NCBI RefSeq assembly: GCF_016592615.1
Contig: NZ_AP013043.1
Coordinates: 630,001 to 662,000, forward strand
Length of the DNA stretch: 32,000 nucleotides
Source of the DNA: Isorropodon fossajaponicum endosymbiont JTNG4
GTDB lineage: Bacteria; Pseudomonadota; Gammaproteobacteria; PS1; Pseudothioglobaceae
Direction of reading: 5' to 3'
In this document: in pieces, positions 4,694 to 23,552 of the stretch
How the letters are laid out: every line of letters starts with the position of its first letter
How positions within the stretch are numbered: position 1 is the stretch's first letter
The notes under the pieces: generated by a model
Database searches by the model: none
Told to the model about the DNA's origin: nothing
The model's input: the letters and a program-made list of their open reading frames with translations, nothing else
Program-made: the position numbers and the translations under genes

Positions 4694-4801
4694 AATTTAA
4701 AATAACGATAAAAAAGTAAGCTTGTCTTTATAAATTATTATTTTAAGTGAAATTGTTTTTCTTTTCAGAAACCTTTTAATTCTTTTATTAGTTTAAAGTA
4801 G

Positions 4802-4899
4802 TGCAATGCTCTAACCTACTTGGACACATTTCAAGCCGCTTTTTTCAATTCAGCCATCTTTTGAGCAGGTGTTAAATACCCAAAAATTAGAGCATTGCA
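4802..4899. mobile_element. Miniature (MITE-like) derivative of the IS3-family element: 82 bp of the IRR end capped by an inverted copy of the 13-bp IRR tip
   Basis: 4802-4883 is identical to the first 82 bp of the IRR end seen at 8950 and 20781. 4887-4899 (TTAGAGCATTGCA) is the exact reverse complement of 4802-4814 (TGCAATGCTCTAA). Confidence 0.6.
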
Positions 4900-4908
4900 G
4901 TATGGTAT

Positions 4909-5274
4909 GTGCTATTTCAGGTTGTTGTGGGTAATTCGCTAACTTTAGAGACTCGTGAGGTGTTCTATACTCCAGCTCATTATACGGGTTTGTGGGATAT
5001 GCGATTAAATCTTAGGAAATCTGAGAGTTTAATTACTAAACAACAGAAACAACAGAACAAGCAACACTCATCGATTCGTTATATTGTTGAGCGAACCTTT
5101 GGTTTGCTCAAGCTTCATCATGGTTTAGGCAAGGTAAGATACCTTGGTTTAGAAAGAAATAAAACCAGGGCTCAGTTAATTGCCATGAGTCACAACTTGA
5201 AAGACTGGCATGAATATATTCAAACGAATGCAAAGCCTGAGGGGTTGTTGTGTTTAAAGGTTGGAATGGTGTAA
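4909..5274 (+). pseudogene. IS5/IS4-superfamily (DDE_Tnp_1-type) transposase, C-terminal remnant
   Basis: Only the C-terminal block is recognisable (SIRYIVERTFGLLKLHHGLGKVRYLGLERNKTRAQLIAMSHNL). No N-terminal catalytic part and no credible start. Confidence 0.55.
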
Positions 5275-5529
5275 AAAATAAGAAAAATAAATGCTAAAAG
5301 CATCTATTTAAAAGGTGGTTTGTTAGATTTTTATGCAAAGATGAGAAAATCTGGTAAATTTTTTAGAAAAAATAAAAAGAATGGAATTTTGGAGAGGGAA
5401 TTATGAATTACGCAAAGGTCTCTCTTTATTTTTCATGCCAATAGATAAGGAGCTCAAGTTTACTCGAAGAGAGGCTAATAAACTATTTGGATGGGCATCT
5501 AGTAATGAAAACCTAAAATTTATCAAAAT

Positions 5530-5772
5530 ATGATTGGAGGCGGGGCAGGTGTTGGTAATGAGTGGTCTGTAGAATTGGCATTGATAGAGGCATCTGGTAA
5601 TTTTAAAAATCCAGAAATTATCAAAACATTACTAAAAGCAGGTGCAACTGTAAACAAAATGCAAAAGAGAAGTATTCTTGGAAAAATATTAAATGGTAAA
5701 AGCTATGTTGCTTTAAGTAAAGAGAAACAACAAATTTATGATTTGATTAAAAATCAAAAAGCTACTCATTAA
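5530..5772 (+). pseudogene. Ankyrin-repeat protein fragment (degraded)
   Basis: ASGNFKNPEIIKTLLKAGATVN fits the ankyrin-repeat consensus (..xxxVVKLLLxxGADVN). A second repeat-like stretch (GWASSNENLKFIK) lies just upstream (about 5488-5529) in another frame, implying a frameshift. Confidence 0.35.
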
Positions 5773-5806
5773 AATAAGGTAATTGGTTTTTATTAAACTA
5801 TGAAAA

Positions 5807-5879: not shown

Positions 5880-6848
5880 ATGGCAGAATTAAGAAACGAT
5901 TGGACTCTAAAAGAGGTTGAGGCATTATTTGTATTACCTTTTAATGATTTATTATTTCAAGCACACAGTATTCATAGACAGAATTTTGACCCTAATCAGG
6001 TTCAAGTTAGTTCATTGTTAAATATCAAAACTGGTGCGTGTCCAGAAGATTGTTCATATTGTTCACAAAGTTCTAAATACGACACAGGGCTTGAGCGTGA
6101 AAAATTAATGGAGGTTGATTTGGTGCTTCAACAAGCCAAACAGGCGCAAGACAAGGGTGCAACGCGGTTTTGTATGGGCGCTGCATGGCGCAATCCTACT
6201 GATAAGAGTCTAGATAAAGTCATCCCCATGATTCAAGGTGTGAAAGCCATGGGCATGGAAACATGCGTAACCTTGGGTATGTTGACCCAGGAACAAGCAT
6301 TTACCTTAAAAGAAGCGGGTCTAGATTATTATAATCATAATATTGACACTTCAAAAGAGCACTACTCAAATGTGGTTACTACGCGTAATTTTCAAGATCG
6401 TTTAAACACTTTAGAATCAGTACAAAATGCCGATATTCATGTTTGTAGTGGTGGCATTTTAGGCTTGGGCGAAAATCAGACTGATCGCGCCTCTATGCTT
6501 AGGTCATTGTCTAGTTTAAAATCACATCCAGATAGTGTGCCACTTAACTTATTAGTACCCATCCCAGGCACGCCATTTGAAAACATTGAGCCACCAACTG
6601 AAAGTGAGTTTATACGTACCATTGCAGTAGCACGCATCATGATGCCAAAATCAGTTGTACGCTTATCAGCAGGACGCACTGAAATGGGCGAGGCTATGCA
6701 AGCGCTTTGTTTTTTTGCAGGGGCTAATTCTATCTTTTATGGCGAGCAATTACTCACCACTGATAATCCAAACACAAGCAGCGACCAAGATTTGTTTGCA
6801 AGGCTAGGGATTAATCAAAAGCAAGCAGATAATCTACAATCTGTTTAG
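5880..6848 (+). CDS. bioB: Biotin synthase
   Basis: Radical-SAM motif [13 protein letters not shown], plus YNHNIDTS and a near-collinear match to BioB. I place the start at ATG 5880 ([17 protein letters not shown]) rather than the track's upstream TTG at 5829, which overlaps the terminator hairpin. Confidence 0.9.
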
Positions 6849-7827
6849 CCGCATTGGGTTTGGTAAGTTTGAGCGCATTAGTAGACATTTGTTTAATTTG
6901 ATTTTTGTTAATATTGAGTAAGGTTTTTTCTAACAGTTCAATCGTTAAATTTTTTTGTTCAATCAATATGCCAGCGTTGCTATCTGCCAAAATCTTGGCA
7001 TTATACAATTGATGATTGTCAATGGCATGAGGCAGGGGGATCAAAATACTAGGCGTGGCTGATAGCATCAATTCTGAAACTGTCATTGCGCCCGCTCTAC
7101 AAAGCACAATATCTGCCCAAGCATAGGCACTTGCCATGTCTTTAATAAATGCAGTAACTTTCACAGTATTGTTTTTGTATTGGGCTTTAACTGCATCAAA
7201 ATGCAGCCCTCCTGTTTGATGCCAAATATTAATATCAATATTGAGTTGTACGGTGATATCGTTAATAGGCTTTGAGCCTAAAGAGCCGCCGATGATTAAT
7301 AAGTTTAATTTATTGTTATTATTTTGTCTTTCAACAGGATTGAACGCGACAGGATTGCCAGAAGTGGTGGCATTTTTAATAAAAGTATCATTAAATGCTT
7401 GAAAGGTTTTTGTGGCTATTTTATTGAGTATTTTATTGGTTGTACCTGGTATAGAGTTCTGTTCATGAATCACCAGTGGTACTCTAAAAATACAAGCCAC
7501 CAAACCGCCAATGCCAGAGGCAAAGCCACCCATGCCAAGTACAATATCTGGTTTAAACTTTAGAAAAATACCCATCACTTGCAGCGTTGCATAACTAAGT
7601 AAAAAAGGCGCTTTTATCAGGCTAACAATACTTTTACCACGCAAGCCAACACTATTCACTGTGTGTAGTTTGATGTTGTGTTTAGGCACAATTTCATTTT
7701 CCATACCAGTATTTGAGCCTAACCATTGAATATGAGTTGAATGATTTTTAAGTTCGTTAACAATAGCAAGTGCAGGAAATATATGCCCACCAGTTCCACC
7801 AGCCATAATGAGAATTTTTTTAGACAT
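6811..7827 (-). CDS. murG: UDP-N-acetylglucosamine--N-acetylmuramyl-(pentapeptide) pyrophosphoryl-undecaprenol GlcNAc transferase
   Basis: [22 protein letters not shown]-terminus and the overall MurG pattern. Start chosen at ATG 7827, overlapping the ftsW stop by 8 nt. Confidence 0.9.
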
Positions 7828-8977
7828 AATGTTTTTGTTTAGAATATTCACAACGATTTTCCATATCAATTCTGAGTAATATAGCCAGTGATATCAGTGC
7901 AAATATCATACTTGAACCGCCATAACTAATCAGTGGCAAGGTAAAGCCCTTGGGTGGAATTAAGCCAAGATTCATGGCAATATTAACGCTAAATTGCATG
8001 CTCAGCCAAGTACAAATACCAAAACCAACATAGGAACTGTATTTGCGATTATTTTTAAGGGCGTCTTTGGCAATTTTAAAACCTTTAAGAATAATATAAG
8101 CAAAGGTAAACAATACAAACAACATACCAACAATACCTGTTTCTTCGCCAATAATAGCAAAAATCATATCGGTATGTGGCTCTGGTAGTTTTGTGTATTT
8201 TTGAATACCATTACCCAATCCAACGCCAGTCCAATCACCTCTAGCGATACCGATTAATGCTTGTTTGGTTTGCCATACTTTTTCAGATTCGTTAAGCCAT
8301 AAATCTTCTCGCCAAAAGGAAGTTAGCCTTTCAACTCGATTGGGAATTTGGAAAAGAATGACAATAAAAACAGCAACAACGCTTGCACCAACTATGAACA
8401 ATTGCTTTAAGTAAACACCAGCAGTTAGCAGCATGGCAAAAGCAGTTGCGGAAATAATAAAGGTCGCGCCAATATCTGGCTCTAGTAATAACAAAAAACT
8501 TGATGCACCAATGATAATAAGCGTTTTAATAAAGCCCATATAAGGCTTTCTTAGATCCTTTTCCTGCCTAACCAAAAAGCCCGCCATGAATAGAATCATC
8601 ACCAATTTCATCATTTCAGAAGGCTGAAATTTAAACAACACAAAGTTAATCCAACGCGTTGAGCCTTTAACGGTTTTGCCAATAGGCTCTGGTAAAAACA
8701 CCAGCGCTAAGCATATCAAAGTAATAATAAAAAATAATTTAGAATGATTTTTGTAAAAATATAAGGGGACTTTAAGCACAGTGTAACCAAGGCTCAAGCC
8801 TAGGATAATAAAAACAGTTTGTTTTATAAAAAAACCGTAACTACTAAAATGTCCAAGCGAGGCAGAAAAAGACAATATCCAGCCAAAGGTCAACAGTGTC
8901 AAAATCGCAAAAAGTAGATTTTTATCAGGCAGTTGACCAGTTTTTTCGATGCAATGCTCTAACCTACTTGGACACAT
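7820..8977 (-). CDS. ftsW: Cell-division lipid II flippase/peptidoglycan glycosyltransferase FtsW (SEDS family); the first 9 codons come from the IS terminal repeat
   Basis: SEDS motifs ([51 protein letters not shown]). The ORF start ATG 8975-8977 lies inside the IS copy whose tip is at 8950. Confidence 0.85.
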
Positions 8978-8978
8978 T

Positions 8979-9707
8979 TCAAGCCGCTTTTTTCAATTCA
9001 GCCATCTTTTGAGCAGGTGTTAAATACCCAATCGCTGAATGAATCCTTTTGTAATTATACAAGTAGATATAACCCTCTACATTTTGCACGACTTCACTAT
9101 GATTTGCAAAACTTTGATAATTTAATCTCTCAGTCTTCAGACTTCTAAAGAAACGCTCCATGACCGCATTATCCCAACAATTACCTCGCCTGCTCATGCT
9201 TTGAGTAATGTTGTTCTTGTTGCAATAATCAATAAAAACTTTAGAAGAGTATTGAGTCCCTTGATCAGAGTGGAACATGTGTTTATTTGTATTGGGCTGG
9301 TGTCTAGACACAGCATTACTAAGCGCATCCTTTGCCAACTGAGCATTAGGCTGTTTTGACAATGCCCAACCAACAACTTGTCTTGAGCCTAAATCCAACA
9401 CACTGGCTAAATAACTCCCACCTTGATAGGTTTTGATATAGGTAATATCACCAACCCAATGCGTATTAATTGATTGCTGCTCAAACACACGATTTAATAG
9501 GTTTTTTGCCTTTTTAAACATCAATCTAGTATTAGGGTAATAATGACGCTTTCTTGGGCGTATGGCAACTACATTGGCTTTTTTCATTAGCGTTGCAGTT
9601 TGGTAAATACCAATGTTATAACCTTGGTTATTCAAAACTACTCGCATTCTGCGTTTGCCATAGGTGTATCCAACTTCAATAGCAGTTTGTTTGATTAATT
9701 TAATCAT
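8979..9707 (-). CDS. IS3-family transposase OrfB (DDE integrase core), ATG-delimited part
   Basis: 242 aa. DDE-type motifs WVGDITYI, HSDQGTQY and NAVMERFF. The protein is identical in all three copies. Confidence 0.85.
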   Translation of the reverse strand: MIKLIKQTAIEVGYTYGKRRMRVVLNNQGYNIGIYQTATLMKKANVVAIRPRKRHYYPNTRLMFKKAKNLLNRVFEQQSINTHWVGDITYIKTYQGGSYLASVLDLGSRQVVGWALSKQPNAQLAKDALSNAVSRHQPNTNKHMFHSDQGTQYSSKVFIDYCNKNNITQSMSRRGNCWDNAVMERFFRSLKTERLNYQSFANHSEVVQNVEGYIYLYNYKRIHSAIGYLTPAQKMAELKKAA

Positions 9708-9832
9708 AGCGTTGGTGTTGTTGTTTACTCGCTTATCTTTGACTTGATAGTAATAACTACTGTGAGGAAGTTTGAGTAATGCTCATAATTCTTTAGTATT
9801 GTATTGTTGGCAAGCCTTGTTTATCTTGATAA

Positions 9833-10184
9833 TCATATCACTTGGTGATTGTCCACAGCGAACAAGGCTGTTGCCTTTTTTAAGATTTCATTGTCCCTTT
9901 GTGCGCGCCAAAGTTGTTTCTCAAGCAGTTGTATTGTTTGTTGTTCAGAAGTCAGCGCTTTGCCTGACTCTGGTGTTTGTCCACCAAGCTCTGCTAGGTA
10001 TTGTTTTCTCCATCTGCTAACTGCTGAGGAGCAAGCTCCTGATATTATCATGATTTTTTTTATTGGTGTAATTCTCATGCACCATGAGTTTGGCATAATC
10101 TAGTGTTCCCCCCTCAAGGGGGTATTGAACAGAATGTTCAACGGTAAAAGTCACTCGTTGTTTTCTTGATTTATATTGTGTCAT
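9833..10184 (-). pseudogene. IS3-family OrfA, frameshifted (A8 tract instead of A7)
   Basis: ATG at 10182-10184 is preceded by AAGGAGG. The T8 run at 10054-10061 (A8 on the coding strand) breaks the frame that is open in copy 3. Confidence 0.7.
9875..9881 (-). promoter_or_regulatory. Programmed -1 frameshift heptamer A AAA AAG (copy 1)
   Basis: Coding strand reads TTA AAA AAG in the orfA zero frame. This is the classical IS3-family slippery motif. Confidence 0.6.
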
Positions 10185-10241
10185 TACTGACCTCCTTATG
10201 GTTTGTATTATAAGGCTATCTTTGTGTCCAATAAAATTAGA

Positions 10242-11864
10242 CTATTGCAGTTTATTTTGACTGGCTAAGTAGTCTTCATAATTGCCAGAATAATAATGCA
10301 TACTGCCCTCTTTAAGCTCTACCACCTTGGTAGACAGTGAGGAAACAAACTCTCTATCATGACTAACAAAAATCAAAGTGCCTTCGTAATTATCCAGTGC
10401 TAGATTAAGAGCTTCGATAGACTCCATATCAAGATGGTTGGTAGGCTCATCCATCACTAATACATTGGGTCTTTGCAGCATGAGTTTGCCAAATAGCATT
10501 CTACCCTTCTCACCACCAGAGAGTGATTTAATGCTCTTTCCAGTATCTTCTTTGCCAAATAACATTTTACCTAGTACTGCGCGCATTGCCTGTACATCGT
10601 CTTTTTCGCTTTTGAATTGGCTCATCCAATCAAGTACATTCATATTAGTTTCAAAATCTTTACTGTGATCCTGTGCATAGTAACCAATATTAATATTTTC
10701 ACTCCACTTAATTTTGCCTTTGTCGGGCTTGATTTCACCAACCAAAATACGTAGCAATGTGGTTTTTCCGATACCATTTTGACCAATGATAGCAATGCGA
10801 TCACCCACCTCAAATAAGAAATTAATATCTTTTAGAACTTCAAGCTTATTATCCTTTTCAGCCTCTCCTTGAGGCGTGAAACTCTTAGACAAGCCTTCGA
10901 CTTCTAATATATTTCTGTGTAACTTAGTTTCTTGGTTGAAAATAATATAAGGGCTTACCCTTGAAGAGGGTCTAATATCGTCCAGTATAATTTTATCTAA
11001 TTGCTTTAATCTTGAAGTGGCTTGCTTAGATTTAGAAGCATTGGCTGAAAAACGAGACACAAAATGCTTAAGCTCTTTAATTTTAGCTTCTTTTTTAGCA
11101 TTATCAGTTTGCATTTTTTCTTGAATAGCGGTTGATGCAATCATGAAATCATCGTAATTACCAGGGAAAGTATTAAGTGCGCCATAGTCTAAATCAGACA
11201 TATGTGTACATACGCCATTTAAAAAGTGCCTATCATGAGAGATGATAACCATGGTTGCCTTGCGTTCTTTTAATACGCCTTCTAGCCAACGAATTGAGTT
11301 AATATCTAAGTTGTTTGTTGGCTCATCAAGTAGTAGGATTTCTGGGTTTGAAAACAGTGCTTGAGCCAGCAAAATACGCAACTTCCAACCTGGTGCAATC
11401 TCACTCATCAGTCCATAATGTTGCTCTTCTGGGATGTCTAAGCCTAATAACAACTCACTGGCAGAAGACTCTGCCATATAACCATCCATTTCTGCAAATT
11501 GCATTTCAAGTTCTGCAACCTTGATGCCGTCTTTCTCGCTCATTTCAGGCAGGGCGTAAATCCTATCTCTTTCTTTTTTAATTTCCCATAATTCACCATG
11601 ACCCATAATCACCGCATCAACCACACGAAAATCCTCAAAGGCAAACTGGTCTTGGCGAAGAACACCCAAACGCTCGCCATCACTAATATGAACCGTGCCA
11701 TTGCTGGGTGTAAGTTCGCCCGTTAAAATTTTCATAAAAGTTGACTTACCACAGCCGTTTGCACCAATTAAACCATAGCGGTTACCGCCTTGAAATTTAA
11801 TAGAGATATTTTCAAATAAAGGTTTTTCACCAAATTGCATGGTGATATTGGCAGTAGAAATCAT
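10242..11864 (-). CDS. ybiT: ABC-F family ATPase YbiT-like (two ABC domains, no membrane domain)
   Basis: 540 aa, collinear by eye with E. coli YbiT ([20 protein letters not shown], second Walker [27 protein letters not shown]). The last codons and the stop lie within the IS tip. Confidence 0.9.
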
Positions 11865-11958
11865 AAGCTTTGTTGTTGTTTTTTACAAAAAACAACATTA
11901 TCCCATAATAGTAACAAAAAATGCAATAGTCTAATTTTATTGGACACAAAGATAGCCT

Positions 11959-11980
11959 TATAATACAAACCATAAGGAGG
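11959..11980 (+). promoter_or_regulatory. Candidate orfA -10 box (TATAAT, 11959-11964) and Shine-Dalgarno (AAGGAGG, 11974-11980)
   Basis: Perfect -10 hexamer and a strong SD 6 nt before ATG 11987. The -35 is weak (TTATTG). Confidence 0.4.
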
Positions 11981-11986
11981 TCAGTA

Positions 11987-12338
11987 ATGACACAATATAA
12001 ATCAAGAAAACAACGAGTGACTTTTACCGTTGAACATTCTGTTCAATACCCCCTTGAGGGGGGAACACTAGATTATGCCAAACTCATGGTGCATGAGAAT
12101 TACACCAATAAAAAAAATCATGATAATATCAGGAGCTTGCTCCTCAGCAGTTAGCAGATGGAGAAAACAATACCTAGCAGAGCTTGGTGGACAAACACCA
12201 GAGTCAGGCAAAGCGCTGACTTCTGAACAACAAACAATACAACTGCTTGAGAAACAACTTTGGCGCGCACAAAGGGACAATGAAATCTTAAAAAAGGCAA
12301 CAGCCTTGTTCGCTGTGGACAATCACCAAGTGATATGA
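11987..12338 (+). pseudogene. IS3-family OrfA, frameshifted (A8 tract at 12110-12117)
   Basis: Same lesion as copy 1. The ORF from ATG 11987 terminates early, and the remaining 87-aa ORF (12075-12338) lacks the N-terminus. Confidence 0.7.
12290..12296 (+). promoter_or_regulatory. Programmed -1 frameshift heptamer A AAA AAG (copy 2)
   Basis: TTA AAA AAG in the orfA frame (codons at 12288, 12291, 12294). Confidence 0.6.
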
Positions 12339-12464
12339 TTATCAAGATAAACAAGGCTTGCCAACAATACAATACTAAAGAATTATGAGCATTACTCAAA
12401 ACTTCCTCGCAGTAGTTATTACTATCAAGTCAAAGATAAGCGAGTAAACAACAACACCAACGCT

Positions 12465-13193
12465 ATGATTAAATTAATCAAACAAACTGCTATTGAAGTT
12501 GGATACACCTATGGCAAACGCAGAATGCGAGTAGTTTTGAATAACCAAGGTTATAACATTGGTATTTACCAAACTGCAACGCTAATGAAAAAAGCCAATG
12601 TAGTTGCCATACGCCCAAGAAAGCGTCATTATTACCCTAATACTAGATTGATGTTTAAAAAGGCAAAAAACCTATTAAATCGTGTGTTTGAGCAGCAATC
12701 AATTAATACGCATTGGGTTGGTGATATTACCTATATCAAAACCTATCAAGGTGGGAGTTATTTAGCCAGTGTGTTGGATTTAGGCTCAAGACAAGTTGTT
12801 GGTTGGGCATTGTCAAAACAGCCTAATGCTCAGTTGGCAAAGGATGCGCTTAGTAATGCTGTGTCTAGACACCAGCCCAATACAAATAAACACATGTTCC
12901 ACTCTGATCAAGGGACTCAATACTCTTCTAAAGTTTTTATTGATTATTGCAACAAGAACAACATTACTCAAAGCATGAGCAGGCGAGGTAATTGTTGGGA
13001 TAATGCGGTCATGGAGCGTTTCTTTAGAAGTCTGAAGACTGAGAGATTAAATTATCAAAGTTTTGCAAATCATAGTGAAGTCGTGCAAAATGTAGAGGGT
13101 TATATCTACTTGTATAATTACAAAAGGATTCATTCAGCGATTGGGTATTTAACACCTGCTCAAAAGATGGCTGAATTGAAAAAAGCGGCTTGA
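12465..13193 (+). CDS. IS3-family transposase OrfB (DDE core), copy 2
   Basis: Protein identical to copies 1 and 3. Confidence 0.85.
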   Translation: MIKLIKQTAIEVGYTYGKRRMRVVLNNQGYNIGIYQTATLMKKANVVAIRPRKRHYYPNTRLMFKKAKNLLNRVFEQQSINTHWVGDITYIKTYQGGSYLASVLDLGSRQVVGWALSKQPNAQLAKDALSNAVSRHQPNTNKHMFHSDQGTQYSSKVFIDYCNKNNITQSMSRRGNCWDNAVMERFFRSLKTERLNYQSFANHSEVVQNVEGYIYLYNYKRIHSAIGYLTPAQKMAELKKAA

Positions 13194-13222
13194 AATGTGT
13201 CCAAGTAGGTTAAACTATTGCA

Positions 13223-15607
13223 CTAAAGTAGTAGAACATATTGGTTTAGAAGGGTACTTTGACTCTCAGTCTAAAAAATATATGGAGCAAATAGAAGATT
13301 ATTTAAAACTCGACCCAAAGAGAAGGGATACATCTACTAGTCAATTAATCACAACATTTTCTTTATCTGAAAATGGCAGAACATTGTCTAAAAGATTAAG
13401 AGTGCAAAGAATATATCTACGCGATGAATATAAAAAAACTAACACAAAGGAAGACCTTGTTAAAACCACCTGCCTTACCAACGCTTTTGTGCATAATCAA
13501 ATGATTGTATGCATGAATTTGCCTGAGCCAAGCGTTTTGTGAATCCCATGGAGTGATACATTGCCATAGGGCGTTGAGTAATTGCATTTAAAGGAAATGC
13601 ATTAATGTCTGTATGTTGAAATTCAATCGGGTCGTGATATAAAGGCAAGGGGTCAAAAAATTCTTTTATGCGAGCACGGAGCTCTTCTGGTGGTTGTTTG
13701 CCTTTGCCTTTGCGCTTGCCTTGTGCAGCTAATTTGAATTTTTGTAATACTTCTGAGTACAAGTGGATTTGTACAGGTTCAGCGTAGCTGAGTTAGCCCG
13801 TTGTGCTTTGTCCATTGGAGATAGCCTAGATTCCAGTTGCGCATATATTGATATGATTTTGGCAATTTATAATGAAAAAAACAATCATTATCGATGTATT
13901 TTTTCCATTGGTTTTTGCTAGGCTCGCCTTTCATCTGTTTTTCGCCATTTTTGCCACGCCAACCTGCTAAATAGCCAATGTCTGAGCCTTTGGTAGTTTC
14001 GTAATTGATGATAAAACCTGGTAATCTTTGTATTTTCGATTGCCATTTTCATCAACAAAAGCAGGGAATTTAAGCCTTGATGCTAATTCAATCAGCACTT
14101 CTTGGAAAGGTTTACAATCGCCTGTTACTGGCAATACTGGCACACGTACAGAATCCACTGGACCATCAAATTCTGAAATAGGTCGATCCAACATACTCAT
14201 TACGTCGTGGCGTTCTAAGTAGGCGGTGTCAGGTAAGATTAAATCAGCAAAATCAACAGTTTCTGATTGAAAGACATCACAGACAATAATAAACGGAATT
14301 TTGCACTCACCATCTTCATTTTTATCAACCAACATTTTTCTGATTTCAGTTGTGTTCATGCTTGAATTCCATGCCATGTTAGACATAAATAACATCAATG
14401 TGTCAATAAAGTATGGGTCACCACGCCAAGCGTTGGTAATTGCATTGTGCATCAAGCCATGTACTGAGAGTGGATGTTCCCATGAAAACCCTTTGTCAAG
14501 GCGTACTGGCTGGCCTTCGTCATCAACAAATAAATCATCAGGATCTGCAGGAAAGCCAAGTACCATAGAATCTAGTGGCATGTTTGGCTTAATATCATCG
14601 GGTGATTTTGGTGGTTTAGCACAAGGCGGAATAGGGCGTGGAAAAGGGGCTTTATGTCTAAATCCACCGGGTCTGTTAATGGTGCCTAATAGCGTCATTA
14701 AGATGGATAAGTTACGAATGGCATGAAAGCCATTTGAGTGGGCGGCCAAACCACGCATTGCGTGGAATGCAACGGGTGCGCCAGTAACATGGTCGTGTTC
14801 CTCACCCAAAGCGTCTATCCAAGCAATAGGCAGCTCAATTTTTTGATCATGCGTAGCAATGCCCATTTCATAAGCAAGCCTGCGAATAGCCCAAAATCAT
14901 CACTGTCTTCATTTATATTGACCAATTCGGCAGCGTTGGTACATTTAATTAAAAATTCACGGTCAAACAAACCTTGCTTGATTAATTCATGATTAATTGC
15001 CATAAATAACGTACCATCAGTGCCTGGTTTAATAGGTATCCACTCATCAGCAATAGCAGAATAACCAGTACGTACTGGGTTGATTGAAATAAATTTACCG
15101 CCATTGCGTTTAAATTTACTCATCTCAATTTTCATTGGATTGGAGTGGTGATCCTCAGCTGTGCCAATCATAATAAAGAGTTTTGCTCTTTCTAAGTTTG
15201 GGGCGCCATATTGCTTGGCAAACAATCCTGTTAATGCTTGCACTTGGTCACAACCTGTAAATAAAGCGAACTTTTTAGGGTCTGTTGCGCGGATGTGGGA
15301 CAGGCGTTTTTCCATAATTTCAAAAGCCTCGTCCCACTCATTTTGCCTCAAATTGTGACTCGCCACGCTTGCGCACCTTCTTTTCTTTTAAGTGGCTTGG
15401 TTAAGCGCGCAGGCGAGTATTGTTTCATAATGCTCAGCTGAGCCCTTGGCACAAATCACACCTTTGTTTTAAGGGTGGTTTGGGTTGCCTTCAATATAGC
15501 GAATTTCACTATTTTCAATCGTGACATTAATGCCGCAACGACAAGCACACATATAGCAAGTGGTGCTTTTTATCTCTTTATTTGTCGGCTTATTTTGTTT
15601 TTGGCAT
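13223..15607 (-). pseudogene. Cytoplasmic molybdopterin (MopB-superfamily) oxidoreductase, multiply disrupted and 3'-truncated by IS copy 2
   Basis: N-terminal Fe-S motif TTCYMCACRCGINV...IRYIEGNPNHP*NKGVICAKGS has an in-frame TAA. The body is split over ORFs 14815-15366, 13967-14866 and 13475-13762 in different frames. There is no Tat signal, and an internal stretch after LFAKQYGAPN appears deleted. Confidence 0.75.
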
Positions 15608-16223: not shown

Positions 16224-19039
16224 ATGAGTAACGAATTTTTAGCCAGACATCTTGGTCCAAGTACAAATGATATTGAGACTATGATAAGCAGCATTGGCTG
16301 CTTATCTGTTGATGAGGTGATATCAAAAACGGTGCCTAAAAATATTTTATTTGGCAATCGAATGGCGCTTGATGAAGGTATGACTGAGCGGGACACTTTG
16401 GCATTGGCCTCAAGCCTTGCTGCTAAAAATATCTTAGCAACTAACTTTATTGGTCAAGGTTATTATGGCACGCTAATGCCGAGCGTTATTCAACGCAATA
16501 TTTTAGAAAATCCGGGTTGATACACGACTTACACACCTTATCAAGCTGAAATTTCTCAGGGTCGTTTGGAAATGCTGCTTAATTTTCAGCACATGATTAT
16601 TGATTTAACAGGCATGGATATTTCCAATGCTTCATTATTAGACGAGCCAACTGCTTGTGCTGAGGCAATGATGATGGCTAAGCGTGCTAATAAAAAGAAT
16701 AAATCCAACCAATTTTTGATTGATATTAACACTCATCCACAAACCATTACTATTTTGCAAACTCGTGCCAAGCCATTAGGCATTGAGTTGATTATTAAAG
16801 ACATTCAACATCATGATTTTAGTGATTGTTTTGCTTGTTTAATGCAATATCCAGGTACAAATGGTGACGTTCGAGATTTAACTGCTGACATTACTAGGGC
16901 AAAAGATAATGATGTATTAACCATTGTTGCTTGTGACCTTTTAGCATTAACACTGATTAAAACCCCTACAGAAATGGGGGCTGATATTGCCAGTGGGTAG
17001 CTCGCAACGCTTTGGCGTGCCTATGGGCTTTGGTGGGCCACATGCGGCATTTTTAAGTGCGCGTAATACGTTTAAACGCATGATACCAGGTCGGCTTATT
17101 GGCATGTCTCAAAGATGTTTTAGGCAATCCAGCAATGCGCATGTCACTACAAACTCGTGAGCAGCACATTCGTCGAGATAAAGCCACTAGTAATATTTGT
17201 ACTGCTCAAGTTTTATTAGCAGTGCTCGCCGCCGCTTATGGTATTTATCATGGCGCTAAAGGTTTGAAAAAAATTGCATTAAGTGTGCATGCTAAGGCCA
17301 ATAATCTTGCTAAAAGCCTGCTTGATGCGGATTTTGAATTAGCCACAGAACAATTTTTTGATACAATTACTATTAACACGACCGATGCTATTAGTTTATT
17401 TAATTCAGCACAATCAAATAACATTAACTTGCGTTTAATTAATGATAACCAATTAAGTATTGCACTTGATGAAACTACAACAGTTGATGAATTATCAAGC
17501 CTTGTGTCGGTTCTATCAATAGGTAAGGCTGCTTATTATCAGTCAGAAAATTTGCTTTTGAATATTGCTAAAGATAATTTACGTACTTCAGATTATTTGA
17601 CTCACCCTGTGTTTAGCAACTACCACTGTGAGACTGAAATGATGCGCTATTTGAAGCGTTTGGAAAATAAAGACATCGCGCTTAATCATTCAATGATTGC
17701 ACTAGGCTCTTGCACTATGAAGCTTAATGCTGCCACACAAATGTATCCAATCACACTGCCTGGTTTTTCTGATTTGCATCCATATGCACCAGAAGATCAA
17801 ACCAAGGGCTATCAGCAATTGTTTAAAGATTTAGAGCAGGCATTAGTAGAAGTTACAGGCTACGATGCAGTTTCTCTGCAGCCCAATGCAGGCTCCCAAG
17901 GTGAGTTTGCAGGTCTTCTAGCAATTAAGTCGTATCATCAATCCAAAGGCGAGGAAGGGCATAATATTTGCCTGATTCCTCAATCAGCACATGGTACTAA
18001 TCCTGCCAGTGCAGTTATGGCGGGCATGAAAGTGGTGATTGTTAAATGTGATGAATCTAGCAATATTGACATTCAAGATTTAACAATAAAGGCTGAGAAA
18101 TACGCAGATAAATTATCAGCCATTATGGTGACTTACCCTTCTACCCACGGCGTATTCGAGGTTGAAATTAAGCAAATATGTGAGATTATTCACACCCATG
18201 GCGCACAAGTATATTTAGATGGTGCCAATCTAAATGCCATGGTTGGCATTACTCGTATGGGTGAATTTGGTGCAGATGTGTCACATATTAATTTACACAA
18301 AACATTTGCCATTCCGCACGGTGGCGGTGGTCCAGGTATGGGGCCGATTGGCGTTAAAGCACACTTGAAAGAGTTTTTACCTGGCAATCCACTAATTAAA
18401 GATTCTAATGCCGTATCCGCAGCCATGTATGGCAGCGCTTCAATTTTGCCAATTTCTTGGTCATATATTAAGTTATTAGGTAAATACGGCATGCAAAGGT
18501 CTACCGAAGTTGCCATTGTGAGTGCTAACTATATTGCCAACGAATTGAAAGATTATTTTCCAATTTTGTATCAAGGTGAGCATAATATGGTTGCACATGA
18601 GTGCATTATTGATATTCGCCCTTTAAAAGAACAAAGTGGCATCTCTGAAGAAGACATTGCCAAGCGTTTGATGGACTATGGTTTTCATTCACCGACCATG
18701 TCATTTCCAGTAGCAGGCACACTCATGATTGAGCCTACAGAAAGTGAATCGCTACGTGAAATTAATCGTTTTATTAAGGCAATGATTAGTATTTATATCG
18801 AGATTCAAAAAGTAATTAAAGGCGAGTGGGACAAGGACAACAACCCGCTTAAAAACGCCCCACACACAGCAATTGAGATGGCTGGAGAGTGGCAATATCC
18901 TTATTCACGAGAAGAGGCGTTATACCCAATAAATTCACTAAAACAAAACAAATATTTCCCGCCCGTTAAGCGCATTGATAATGTGTATGGCGATCGAAAT
19001 TTATTTTGCTCGTGCCCAGACATTAAGGGTTTTGAGTAG
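16224..19039 (+). pseudogene. gcvP: Glycine dehydrogenase (decarboxylating) GcvP, disrupted by one nonsense codon and two 1-nt insertions
   Basis: Three collinear ORFs. TGA at 16518-16520 replaces the conserved Trp of LENPGWYT. The frame shifts near 16990 ([25 protein letters not shown]) and near 17110 ([18 protein letters not shown]). The remainder is well conserved, including [16 protein letters not shown]. Confidence 0.85.
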
Positions 19040-20780: not shown

Positions 20781-20809
20781 TGCAATGCTCTAACCTACTT
20801 GGACACATT

Positions 20810-21538
20810 TCAAGCCGCTTTTTTCAATTCAGCCATCTTTTGAGCAGGTGTTAAATACCCAATCGCTGAATGAATCCTTTTGTAATTATACAAGTAGATA
20901 TAACCCTCTACATTTTGCACGACTTCACTATGATTTGCAAAACTTTGATAATTTAATCTCTCAGTCTTCAGACTTCTAAAGAAACGCTCCATGACCGCAT
21001 TATCCCAACAATTACCTCGCCTGCTCATGCTTTGAGTAATGTTGTTCTTGTTGCAATAATCAATAAAAACTTTAGAAGAGTATTGAGTCCCTTGATCAGA
21101 GTGGAACATGTGTTTATTTGTATTGGGCTGGTGTCTAGACACAGCATTACTAAGCGCATCCTTTGCCAACTGAGCATTAGGCTGTTTTGACAATGCCCAA
21201 CCAACAACTTGTCTTGAGCCTAAATCCAACACACTGGCTAAATAACTCCCACCTTGATAGGTTTTGATATAGGTAATATCACCAACCCAATGCGTATTAA
21301 TTGATTGCTGCTCAAACACACGATTTAATAGGTTTTTTGCCTTTTTAAACATCAATCTAGTATTAGGGTAATAATGACGCTTTCTTGGGCGTATGGCAAC
21401 TACATTGGCTTTTTTCATTAGCGTTGCAGTTTGGTAAATACCAATGTTATAACCTTGGTTATTCAAAACTACCCGCATTCTGCGTTTGCCATAGGTGTAT
21501 CCAACTTCAATAGCAGTTTGTTTGATTAATTTAATCAT
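20810..21538 (-). CDS. IS3-family transposase OrfB (DDE core), copy 3
   Basis: Protein identical to copies 1 and 2. It lies in the -1 frame relative to orfA ((22014-21538) mod 3 = 2). Confidence 0.85.
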   Translation of the reverse strand: MIKLIKQTAIEVGYTYGKRRMRVVLNNQGYNIGIYQTATLMKKANVVAIRPRKRHYYPNTRLMFKKAKNLLNRVFEQQSINTHWVGDITYIKTYQGGSYLASVLDLGSRQVVGWALSKQPNAQLAKDALSNAVSRHQPNTNKHMFHSDQGTQYSSKVFIDYCNKNNITQSMSRRGNCWDNAVMERFFRSLKTERLNYQSFANHSEVVQNVEGYIYLYNYKRIHSAIGYLTPAQKMAELKKAA

Positions 21539-21663
21539 AGCATTGGTGTTGTTGTTTACTCGCTTATCTTTGACTTGATAGTAATAACTACTGCGAGGAA
21601 GTTTGAGTAATGCTCATAATTCTTTAGTATTGTATTGTTGGCAAGCCTTGTTTATCTTGATAA

Positions 21664-22014
21664 TCATATCACTTGGTGATTGTCCACAGCGAACAAGGCT
21701 GTTGCCTTTTTTAAGATTTCATTGTCCCTTTGTGCGCGCCAAAGTTGTTTCTCAAGCAGTTGTATTGTTTGTTGTTCAGAAGTCAGCGCTTTGCCTGACT
21801 CTGGTGTTTGTCCACCAAGCTCTGCTAGGTATTGTTTTCTCCATCTGCTAACTGCTGAGGAGCAAGCTCCTGATATTATCATGATTTTTTTATTGGTGTA
21901 ATTCTCATGCACCATGAGTTTGGCATAATCTAGTGTTCCCCCCTCAAGGGGGTATTGAACAGAATGTTCAACGGTAAAAGTCACTCGTTGTTTTCTTGAT
22001 TTATATTGTGTCAT
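21664..22014 (-). CDS. IS3-family OrfA (HTH plus leucine-zipper-like region), intact
   Basis: 116 aa from ATG 22014, preceded by AAGGAGG: MTQYKSRKQRVTFTVEHS...SSAVSRWRKQY...LLEKQLWRAQRDNEILKKA. Confidence 0.8.
   Translation of the reverse strand: MTQYKSRKQRVTFTVEHSVQYPLEGGTLDYAKLMVHENYTNKKIMIISGACSSAVSRWRKQYLAELGGQTPESGKALTSEQQTIQLLEKQLWRAQRDNEILKKATALFAVDNHQVI
21706..21712 (-). promoter_or_regulatory. Programmed -1 frameshift heptamer A AAA AAG (copy 3)
   Basis: Plus strand CTTTTTT at 21706-21712. It sits in the orfA zero frame as TTA AAA AAG. Confidence 0.6.
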
Positions 22015-22079
22015 TACTGACCTCCTTATGGTTTGTATTATAAGGCTATCTTTGTGTCCAATAAAATTAGACTATTGCA

Positions 22080-22563
22080 ATCACGGGTACCTATGCCTTT
22101 GGCATATAGGCTTAATATCTGACTATCAAAAGCACCCAATCGGCGTTTGACCTTTTTCAATAATTAAAGGTTCAAAGCTACCTCTGCGGTCTCTTGGGAT
22201 AGCAAGTTCAACTTCACCATGATTGCCTTTGACGGTTTTAGGGTAATAGCCATTACGAGCATTGCTGTCTGTATTAAGCTCGCTGCTATTTTGCCCATAT
22301 TTTGGATAACCAAGATGATGTTCCATCTCAGCACCTAATGCTGCTTCAATGGTCATTTTAACCAGTGAAGCAGCTAGATCTGCTAAATCATCTTGGGTGT
22401 GGATGTCTTTGGCAAGTTCATCAGCAAAAGCACGGAGCTTTTTCTGGTTGATGCCTGTGTTGTTAAGTTGCTTTTTTTTGTTTCTTGGTATTGTGTTACT
22501 CATGTTTTTTCTCCTTTTCGGGGATTATAAAATATGAGGGTTTACACAATCTGGTTTACAGGG
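22080..22563 (-). pseudogene. IS256-family (Mutator-type) transposase, 5' remnant truncated by IS3 copy 3
   Basis: 125-aa ORF with LVKMTIEAALGAEMEHHLGY...NARNGYYPKTV...LAIPRDRRGSFEP. The next block (GAFDSQILSLYAKGIGTRD) is in another frame and is cut at 22080. The upstream leader contains GGGTTTACACAATCTGGTTTACAGGG. Confidence 0.7.
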
Positions 22564-23394
22564 TCAAATAATACCTTGTTGTTTAGCAAAGTAGTTTGTT
22601 GCTTCAACGTAGCCTTGGATGCTACCACAATCAAATCGCTTGCCTTTAAATTTATAAGCAATCACTCGGCCTTGTTTTGCTTGGGTGAGTAGTGCATCGG
22701 TGATTTGAATTTCACCACCTTTGCCAGGTTTGGTTTGTTTAAGGATATTAAAAATATCGGGTGTTAGGATATAACGACCTATGATGACTATATTGGTAGG
22801 TGCATCCTTTGGTGCTGGCTTTTCAATCATATCAGTAACGCGGTACGTGTCATTAGTATTGTCAACTAAGTTACCAGCAATGACACCATACTTATGGGTT
22901 TGATCTATGGGCACTTGTTCAATAGCCACGATTGAGCATTGATATTTGTTGTACACTTGAATCATTTGAGTTAGTACACTATCGTTTTCTGATGTGCACA
23001 AATCATCGGCTAGATGAACAGCAAATGGCTCATTGCCAATTAGCGGTTCGCCAGTGAGAATGGCATGCCCCAATCCCAACATTTGTTTTTGCCTGACATA
23101 AGTAAAAGTGGCTTTGTTGCAAACGGCATTGATTTCTTTTAATAACACTTCTTTTTGCGTGCCTTGAATTTGAGCCTCCAACTCTAAAGCTCGGTCAAAA
23201 TGGTCTTCAATAGCTCGCTTTCCTTTGCCAGTGACGATGGCCATATTGCTCATGCCAGCATCAAGTGCCTCTTCTACGGCATATTGTAATAATGGCTTGG
23301 TTAGAATAGGCAGCATTTCTTTGGGTACTGCTTTCGTGGCAGGTAAGAATCTAGTACCAAAGCCTGCTGCAGGGAAGAGGCATTTTTTAATCAT
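22564..23394 (-). CDS. galU: UTP--glucose-1-phosphate uridylyltransferase
   Basis: 276 aa. N-terminus KCLFPAAGFGTRFLPATKAVPKEMLPI and VEKP-type motif MIEKPAP are characteristic of GalU. Confidence 0.92.
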   Translation of the reverse strand: MIKKCLFPAAGFGTRFLPATKAVPKEMLPILTKPLLQYAVEEALDAGMSNMAIVTGKGKRAIEDHFDRALELEAQIQGTQKEVLLKEINAVCNKATFTYVRQKQMLGLGHAILTGEPLIGNEPFAVHLADDLCTSENDSVLTQMIQVYNKYQCSIVAIEQVPIDQTHKYGVIAGNLVDNTNDTYRVTDMIEKPAPKDAPTNIVIIGRYILTPDIFNILKQTKPGKGGEIQITDALLTQAKQGRVIAYKFKGKRFDCGSIQGYVEATNYFAKQQGII

Positions 23395-23552
23395 AGTTGT
23401 TGTAATTTTTTAATCATAGTTGTTGTAATTTTTTAATCATAGTTGTTGTAATTTTTTAATCATAGTTGTTGTAATTTTTTAATCATAGTTGTTGTAATTT
23501 TTTAATCATAGTTGTTGTAATTTTTTAATCATAGTTGTTGTAATTTTTTAAT
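23382..23552 (-). repeat. Perfect 23-bp tandem repeat, about 7.4 units (coding-strand unit ATGATTAAAAAATTACAACAACT)
   Basis: Plus-strand unit TAATCATAGTTGTTGTAATTTTT starts at 23388, 23411, 23434, 23457, 23480, 23503 and 23526. No mismatches seen. Confidence 0.95.

Follow-up and report, generated by a model that had tools for sequence, protein, structure and literature searches.

The hybrid ftsW gene

The window analyzed here is a stretch of 32,000 nucleotides from the Isorropodon fossajaponicum endosymbiont JTNG4 (contig NZ_AP013043.1, positions 630,001 to 662,000), and it contains an ftsW gene whose 5' end is joined to an insertion sequence (IS) of the IS3 family. According to the window's list of open reading frames (ORFs), a single ORF covers FtsW. 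It is found at 7820..8977 on the minus strand and encodes 385 amino acids, and its identity is established by the TIGR02614 model, by alignment with 14 homologues and by a database protein of the same sequence. The ORF opens at an ATG at 8977-8975, inside the IS. Comparison of three near-identical 1.3-kb copies of the element places the boundary of the copy next to ftsW (copy 1) at 8950 (...GAGCATTGCA|TCGAAAAAAC, in which the bar marks the boundary). The 28 bases at 8950..8977 (minus strand) are therefore IS-derived, and constitute the tip of the right inverted repeat (IRR).

On the minus strand, the end of copy 1 reads ...GCGGCT TGA A ATG TGT CCA AGT AGG TTA GAG CAT TGC A|TC GAA AAA ACT GG. 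The first TGA is the stop codon of the IS gene orfB (8979..8981, minus strand, assigned from the sequence and its translation), and the ATG of the IRR lies one base past this stop codon (8981-8979), in the string TGA-A-ATG. The IRR tip contributes the ATG, eight more codons and the first base of the junction codon. Thus, codons 1-9 of the hybrid ORF (MCPSRLEHC) come from the IS, codon 10 (A|TC, Ile10) combines one IS base with two bases of the flank, and codons 11-385 correspond to native FtsW residues 3-377. No stop codon occurs between the IS ATG and ftsW. The hybrid retains 375 of 377 native residues, and only Met1 and Phe2 are replaced. A preliminary description of this DNA had proposed the position of the IS tip, the single FtsW ORF with its ATG, the IS origin of MCPSRLEHC and the one-nucleotide spacing from the orfB stop codon, and all of these proposals prove exact to the base.

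The locus has the structure of an IS-driven hybrid gene, in which an IS end in the sense orientation replaces the native 5' end and supplies an in-frame start with no intervening stop. The window has three more IRR ends with the same ATG, which there opens ORFs of just 115, 34 and 13 codons. The other two reading frames of the ftsW flank reach stop codons after 16 and 7 codons. Because the database protein (P0124, listed from NCBI, UniRef and nr, on an NCBI contig of 1,447,997 nt) is identical to the 385-amino-acid ORF, public annotation already uses the IS ATG.

Relatives that lack the IS reveal the ancestral 5' end of ftsW. The closest FtsW homologues, which come from R. magnifica, R. endofausta, the Abyssogena phaseoliformis symbiont and several Ruthia/Ruthturnera metagenome-assembled genomes (MAGs), have 377 amino acids, and all start with MFEKTGQ. 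Fifteen close FtsW homologues share this start, as do approximately 40 related loci, and in the 90% cluster it is found in each of the 14 full-length members besides P0124, which has the sole hybrid start among 15. Five close relatives have ...CTCATGTTTGAAAAAAC at the start of ftsW and the window has ...TTGCA|TCGAAAAAAC, so the IS adjoins position 5 of the ftsW ORF. The bases ATGT, the 5' UTR and the native promoter region are gone from the ftsW side of the junction. In the IS-free form, the native upstream sequence is ATGTTTGAA. The missing DNA amounts to about 100-110 nt by comparison with the nearest relatives, or 281 nt by comparison with locus L001, and includes a GCGTATAAT box (TATAAT) that is conserved in five of the five relatives aligned. 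These comparisons agree with the earlier proposal that the native start and upstream region are lost. In L001 (7724-8000) and L007, the region between ftsW and its neighbor, an ABC-F ATPase gene, carries an extra insert of ~170 nt without counterpart in the Ruthia complete genomes. Judging from these sequences, the ABC-F/ftsW spacer itself varies within the clade.

The ftsW coding sequence appears to be that of a maintained gene. The pairwise ratios of nonsynonymous to synonymous substitution rates (dN/dS) between the window and six relatives are 0.033-0.058, the same as among the relatives, and the codon changes unique to the window comprise no nonsynonymous and eight synonymous changes. The protein matches the FtsW equivalog TIGR02614 at residues 18-373 (340.5 bits; cutoff 337.5) and the Pseudomonas FtsW structures PDB 8P1U/8BH1 at residues 18-381 (E = 4e-71). 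Since both matches begin at residue 18, the IS-encoded residues and the junction codon lie ahead of the conserved SEDS core. The N-terminal tail of FtsW varies in length and sequence in the alignment of clade homologues. By this comparison, the hybrid N-terminus is a short, variable, predicted cytoplasmic tail outside the conserved FtsW core.

The IS3-family element and its copies

Canonical members of the IS3 family, such as IS911, IS150, IS2 and IS3, have TG...CA termini, two genes termed orfA and orfB, an A AAA AAG slippery sequence, a DDE (rve) transposase and a promoter in the left inverted repeat (IRL). IS copy 1 (8950..10249, minus strand, 1300 bp), which was defined by repeats, alignment, Pfam and the NF033516 model, conforms to this plan. 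Its termini are imperfect inverted repeats that begin with TG and end with CA (IRL TGCAATAGTCTAATTTTATTGGACACA; reverse complement of the IRR TGCAATGCTCTAACCTACTTGGACACA). The heptamer A AAA AAG is located at 9881-9875 in the zero frame of orfA, as expected for the -1 frameshift of the family, and the orfA stop codon overlaps the orfB ATG as ATGA. The transposase scores 258.9 bits against the IS3 transposase model NF033516 (cutoff 160) and matches the Pfam families rve, rve_2, rve_3 and HTH_21. The closest OrfB among 5.8 billion proteins is just 86% identical, which implies that the IS is an undescribed member of the IS3 family.

Two further copies were recognized by repeats and alignment. Copy 2 (11922..13222, plus strand) is inverted relative to copy 1. 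Copy 3 (20781..22079, minus strand) has an intact orfA of 116 amino acids and the same orfB TGA, and served as the reference for the IS boundaries. Divergence among the copies is 0.2-0.4%, or a few bases per 1300. The window's IS differs from canonical IS3 elements in that orfB carries a nonsense codon in all three copies, orfA is frameshifted in two copies and target-site duplications are missing. The nonsense codon is an in-frame TGA (9785-9787 in copy 1) at the position of a Cys that is invariant in five homologues, and the frameshift in copies 1 and 2 reflects an A8 tract in place of A7 (near 10045-10052). In addition, orfB of all three copies has Gly where the homologues have an invariant Trp (YQGWSY). 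None of the copies encodes an intact autonomous transposase. From its sequence, the transposase looks dead in this genome, or dependent on a copy elsewhere. A dead transposase would leave the junction with ftsW frozen.

No target-site duplication of 3-4 bp is present at copies 1-3, whose flanks are AAC/TCG, AAA/CTA and GAT/GTT. Missing duplications are expected after recombination between copies and are no argument against the IS3 family. Because all three copies lack them, the copies appear to have recombined, and there are no duplications from which to read the order of insertions, deletion and inversion at this locus.

A recombined set of repeats also raises the possibility that the ftsW junction is an artefact, either a minority structural variant in the symbiont population or a repeat-mediated misjoin, and that the dominant genotype has a native ftsW 5' end. 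Read mapping detected intra-host structural variation in two related Ruthia symbionts, Ca. R. phaseoliformis and Ca. R. southwardae (bioRxiv 10.1101/2020.02.01.930370), and a separate preprint reports a few transposases, mainly in these two lineages (bioRxiv 10.1101/2020.10.19.345819). Neither the IS-ftsW junction nor the IRR tip was matched in exact searches of a metagenome collection (zero matches each), which would fit such an explanation. The IS is also absent from the 76 related loci that were fetched. However, the IRR-ftsW junction is a feature of 30 nt that is spanned by any type of read. A misjoin through the IS could re-pair its flanks, but could not create this junction. Moreover, the contig is a chromosome-scale record of 1.448 Mb, and the flank has its own substitutions relative to all relatives, as is consistent with a real lineage. 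An artefact is therefore very unlikely.

The IRR ATG belongs to a conserved repeat core, GGCTTGAAATGTGTC, and the string TGA-A-ATGTGTC is common to two related IS elements, L075 and L076. On this sequence evidence, the ATG is a conserved feature of the repeat and not an adaptation of copy 1. The IRR tip of copy 2 differs at three bases (TTAAACTATTGCA versus TTAGAGCATTGCA), and its ATG leads into the flank as an ORF of 115 amino acids (13195-13542). This ORF has no Pfam match and is treated as a chance ORF.

Other mobile DNA is also present in the window. Positions 4802-4899 contain a 98-nt derivative of the IS that resembles a miniature inverted-repeat transposable element (MITE). It is made up of the final 82 nt of the IS (the end of orfB and the IRR), and its inner side is capped by an inverted 13-nt IRR tip (TGCAATGCTCTAA...TTAGAGCATTGCA). 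The derivative sits in a 1.08-kb insertion (4714-5794) between glnA and bioB that is not found in relatives, and next to it is a fragment of a DDE_Tnp_1 (IS4/IS5-like) transposase (4909-5274). Finally, the IRL of copy 3 cuts a fragment of a Mutator/IS256-family transposase (22080-22503, 125 amino acids), such that one IS is nested in another.

Neighboring genes and expression signals

The gene murG (6811..7827, minus strand) was identified by ORFs, sequence and synteny. Its ATG overlaps the ftsW stop codon by 8 nt (ATGTCTAA), as in relatives, which makes murG the partner of ftsW in a single unit, and murG is directly downstream of ftsW in all related loci examined. On the other side of copy 1 is an ABC-F ATPase gene of the YbiT/PRK15064 type (10242..11864, minus strand), which is supported by the NF011646 model (949.6 bits), by its orientation in BLAST and by alignment of its 3' end.

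In IS-free relatives, brkB and the ABC-F gene point one way, and ftsW and murG follow in the opposite orientation across an intergenic region, with bioB and glnA beyond them oriented as brkB is. A divergent ABC-F gene is upstream of ftsW in all 36 SUP05/Thioglobus/Thiodubiliella/Ruthia loci that have enough flanking sequence, at a spacing of 100-170 nt (331 nt in L001), and murD never is. The canonical order murD-ftsW-murG of dcw clusters is thus found neither in the window nor in the 36 clade loci. The preliminary description had brought up the missing murD in its account of the lost upstream region, an argument that these loci contradict. It had also suggested that relatives would yield both the ancestral ftsW 5' end and a murD-ftsW junction; the former was recovered, but the latter does not occur in the clade. 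The absence of murD upstream of ftsW is, from this synteny, evidently ancestral to the clade and unrelated to the IS.

Inversions by recombination between inverted IS copies occur in IS-rich symbionts and pathogens. Inversions have also been described among clam symbionts (bioRxiv 10.1101/2020.02.01.930370). A similar rearrangement is seen in the window, where copies 1 and 2, which are >99% identical and inverted relative to each other, bracket the ABC-F segment with both IRLs facing inward. This segment (10250-11921) is inverted relative to ftsW, in contrast to every relative (BLAST orientation versus L001 and L004-L008), and the ABC-F gene is now co-directional with copy 1 and ftsW. The inversion differs from the previous cases in that it spans just 1.67 kb and one gene, and in that it has lined up transcription of this gene with the IS and the promoterless ftsW-murG genes. 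Synteny with relatives is lost beyond copy 2. A composite transposon made of copy 1, ABC-F and copy 2 was considered and rejected, because ABC-F is the native neighbor of ftsW in all relatives; the outer flanks of this unit (TCG... and CTA...) are not duplicated.

Both ends of the ABC-F gene are altered as well. At its 3' end, a 1-nt change in an A run has removed the native TAA, and the ORF now ends at a TAG in the copy 1 IRL, which changes the C-terminus from ...ASQK* to ...ASQNKLQ* (IS-end patch region 10242-10258). At its 5' end, 57 nt of the native ABC-F/ftsW intergenic region remain (11865..11921, plus strand; delimited by alignment and promoter scans). They adjoin the ABC-F start and the copy 2 IRL and are detached from ftsW. 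The remnant contains the promoter-like sequence TTTACA-16-CATAAT (11882-11909, plus strand), which points towards ftsW in relatives and into copy 2 here. The predicted native -35 box of ABC-F is displaced by the copy 2 IRL (the site in relative L004 is TTGAGC-18-GATAAT), and a hybrid promoter-like site, TAGACT-17-TATTAT, spans the ABC-F/copy 2 junction (11905-11933). In sum, the IS ends at the ftsW locus give one start codon and one stop codon and cover a -35 position; the ORFs of all three genes are still full-length.

Several signals could direct transcription towards ftsW. A candidate IS promoter in the IRL (10207..10235, minus strand) has the form TTTATT-17-TATAAT and is followed by AAGGAGG and the orfA ATG. 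It was recognized by reading the sequence and by its conservation in two elements of other genomes, L075 and L076, which are related to the IS and in which the block of TATAAT and Shine-Dalgarno (SD) sequence is nearly invariant. The block points towards ftsW. The consensus scanner missed this candidate, since its -35 region matches at only 3/6 positions. The same scan found three promoter-like sites within copy 1 that point towards ftsW, and terminator-like sites were not predicted on the minus strand between 10400 and 7700. The ABC-F gene lacks its native downstream region and reads into the IS. Thus, given the lack of terminators and the promoter-like sites of the IS, read-through into ftsW-murG is the expected default. 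The sequence supports the conclusion that any ftsW-murG transcript with a canonical start would have to begin in or upstream of the IS. A hybrid promoter composed of the IRR tip (TTGCA|T as the -35 box) and the ftsW flank was rejected, because there is no -10 box at a usable spacing and the transcript would lack the ATG.

As for translation, no canonical in-frame start other than the IS ATG precedes the first membrane helix. Those that come next, TTG26, TTG29 and TTG35, are inside the first hydrophobic helix, as had been noted previously, and before the helix only the non-canonical ATC10 and CTG16 are available. The predicted RNA fold around the IS ATG is unremarkable (-25 kcal/mol, z = -0.48). 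Alternatively, FtsW might be made from ATC10, CTG16, TTG26 or TTG29 on a read-through transcript, in which case the IS ATG would be irrelevant. One homologue (P0042) is annotated from the position equivalent to Leu16 (MPDK...) and several clade members have Met there, so a protein that starts at this position would probably work. An AGG/GAG-rich stretch (AAGTAGGTTAGAG) is also situated just 5' of codons 10-16. However, CTG and ATC are rare initiators, and starts at TTG26, TTG29 or TTG35 are within the first transmembrane helix (TM1) and would truncate it, whereas a canonical ATG in an A-rich, unstructured context is located only 9-15 codons upstream in the same frame. Initiation from a non-IS start is consequently quite unlikely.

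The bracketed arrangement of the ABC-F segment suggests a more speculative idea, to which we assign only a faint chance. The 1.67-kb segment could be a reversible switch for expression of ftsW-murG. As the segment lies now, ABC-F transcription would pass through copy 1 and reach ftsW; were the segment flipped, the promoter-like TTTACA-16-CATAAT of the 57-nt remnant would be directly upstream of copy 1 and would point towards ftsW. If this were true, recombination would switch a septal cell-wall synthase between levels within the symbiont population, and could tie the intra-host structural variation of related symbionts to the control of division. In a weaker version of this idea, the conserved IRR ATG of this IS subgroup could make insertions at gene 5' ends unusually tolerable.

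Beyond copy 2, two genes are apparent pseudogenes. A molybdopterin-type oxidoreductase (13967-15366) is distributed over at least two ORFs (299 and 183 amino acids), and gcvP, which encodes glycine dehydrogenase (16566-19039), is split into pieces of 144 and 646 amino acids. These broken genes indicate that gene decay is in progress near the IS copies. Further along, a perfect 23-nt tandem array of 7.4 copies (23382-23552, ATTTTTTAATCATAGTTGTTGTA) extends across the pgi stop codon and the galU start (minus strand), and each unit holds the galU ATG and first codons. Because the period is not a multiple of 3, changes in copy number could alter the initiation of galU.

Function of the hybrid gene and related cases

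We estimate a probability of roughly 0.6 that the hybrid is the expressed, functional form of FtsW, a reading that rests on features of the DNA. The path to the present arrangement involved at least two IS junctions, the loss of ~100 nt of upstream DNA and the inversion of ABC-F between two inverted IS copies. The result would be a chimeric unit that runs from the hybrid promoter through ABC-F and the damaged orfA and orfB of the IS to ftsW and murG, with ftsW-murG in the distal position. The IRL promoter and the promoter-like sites inside the IS may add to transcription of ftsW-murG. Translation would start at the IS ATG without an SD sequence, and reinitiation after the orfB stop codon may help. 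The arrangement would persist since only in-frame junctions keep FtsW, which amounts to a survivorship filter and calls for no special mechanism.

Several observations weigh against this reading. The IS ATG has no SD sequence, and a strong outward promoter was not found near the IRR. That lack is usual here, however, since the native ftsW start in relatives and 13 of the 16 starts listed for genes of the window have no SD sequence either. Translation of orfB, which coupling of ftsW to orfB requires, is compromised by the frameshift in orfA of copy 1 and by the orfB TGA of all copies, so few ribosomes should reach the orfB stop codon, unless they reinitiate at the ATG at 9707. Coupling, which had been raised as a possibility in the preliminary description, is therefore permitted by the geometry of TGA-A-ATG, but is probably weak. 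Divergence of no more than 0.2-0.4% among the IS copies makes the event probably recent, and probably much younger than the branch used to measure selection, so the absence of decay in ftsW is correspondingly weak evidence of continued function. Ruthia magnifica and Vesicomyosocius okutanii are listed without FtsZ in a review (PMC4164004), and given this listing for two members of the group, the essentiality of FtsW in the clade is an assumption. The inspection for ftsW covers the window, and a second copy might exist elsewhere in the genome. Finally, an insertion in the sense orientation has a prior probability of 1 in 3 of being in frame.

Some of these observations would also fit an incipient pseudogene. 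In this explanation, the IS silenced ftsW recently, the in-frame ATG is a 1-in-3 accident, there has been no time for decay, and murG is perhaps expressed from a promoter within ftsW. The near-identical IS copies are in accord with recent events, the split gcvP and the oxidoreductase fragments indicate that other genes in the window are decaying, a promoter-like sequence that matches at 10 of 12 positions (TTGACA-17-GATATT, 8902-8874) lies inside ftsW where it could serve murG, and the reported absence of FtsZ implies that division genes are not untouchable. On the other hand, a full-length, strongly constrained ftsW (dN/dS 0.03-0.06) is kept in every Ruthia-clade genome examined, and the changes on the window's branch are exclusively synonymous. 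The 8-nt overlap of murG with the ftsW stop codon also suggests that their translation is coupled. Moreover, the relative V. okutanii reportedly lacks class A penicillin-binding proteins (PBPs) and is said to depend on SEDS/bPBP polymerases (PMC8406291). Such pairs would then be the sole polymerases, and FtsW would be more important in such an organism, not less. We therefore regard an incipient pseudogene as unlikely.

The preliminary description held that an in-frame start donated by the IS is a selected rescue rather than chance. In the sense of survivorship, this is the most economical view, because ftsW is under strong purifying selection and exhibits no decay. If the cell needs FtsW, no outcome other than an in-frame junction survives, so the rescue is an ordinary survivorship filter acting on a 1-in-3 event.

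IS elements that drive or remodel neighboring genes are already well documented, and the ftsW case is a further example. In Acinetobacter baumannii, ISAba1 inserted in adeS drives the downstream remainder of the gene from its promoter Pout, as was demonstrated experimentally (PMC3498117). The likeness is that an IS is inserted in a gene whose remainder would, in the ftsW case too, be expressed from an IS promoter. In that case, however, the product is an N-terminally truncated, constitutively active sensor that was selected by antibiotics. The ftsW case, read from the DNA sequence, retains 375 of 377 residues, has its ATG inside the inverted repeat and affects a housekeeping gene for cell-wall synthesis and division. 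In Bordetella pertussis, outward promoters of IS481 transcribe katA and bteA (PMC3053399). This too is a host-restricted bacterium with an expanded IS, in which IS copies at gene 5' ends are the main source of transcripts, but at bteA the IS occupies the 5' UTR and leaves the native start codon in place, the protein is down-regulated and no residues are encoded by the IS. The ftsW locus differs from both cases in that an IS-bounded inversion brought the neighboring gene into line, and in that the host is an obligate symbiont. Survival of a gene after transposon damage by means of a start carried on the element is a known route, of which ftsW is a clean new example in a Ruthia-clade symbiont.

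For annotation, these results mean that the deposited 385-amino-acid FtsW carries nine transposon-derived residues, and that the missing murD is a clade-wide trait and not damage. If the hybrid gene is indeed expressed, it would illustrate, in a well-defined way, the exaptation of an IS for an essential function, and the understanding of IS-driven expression would be unchanged. The locus documents precisely, in nature, how a normally essential gene for cell-wall synthesis and division can lose its promoter and start codon to a mobile element and keep an intact frame by way of an IS-encoded ATG. It shows how gene-dense symbiont genomes that are invaded by IS elements can tolerate insertions at gene boundaries.

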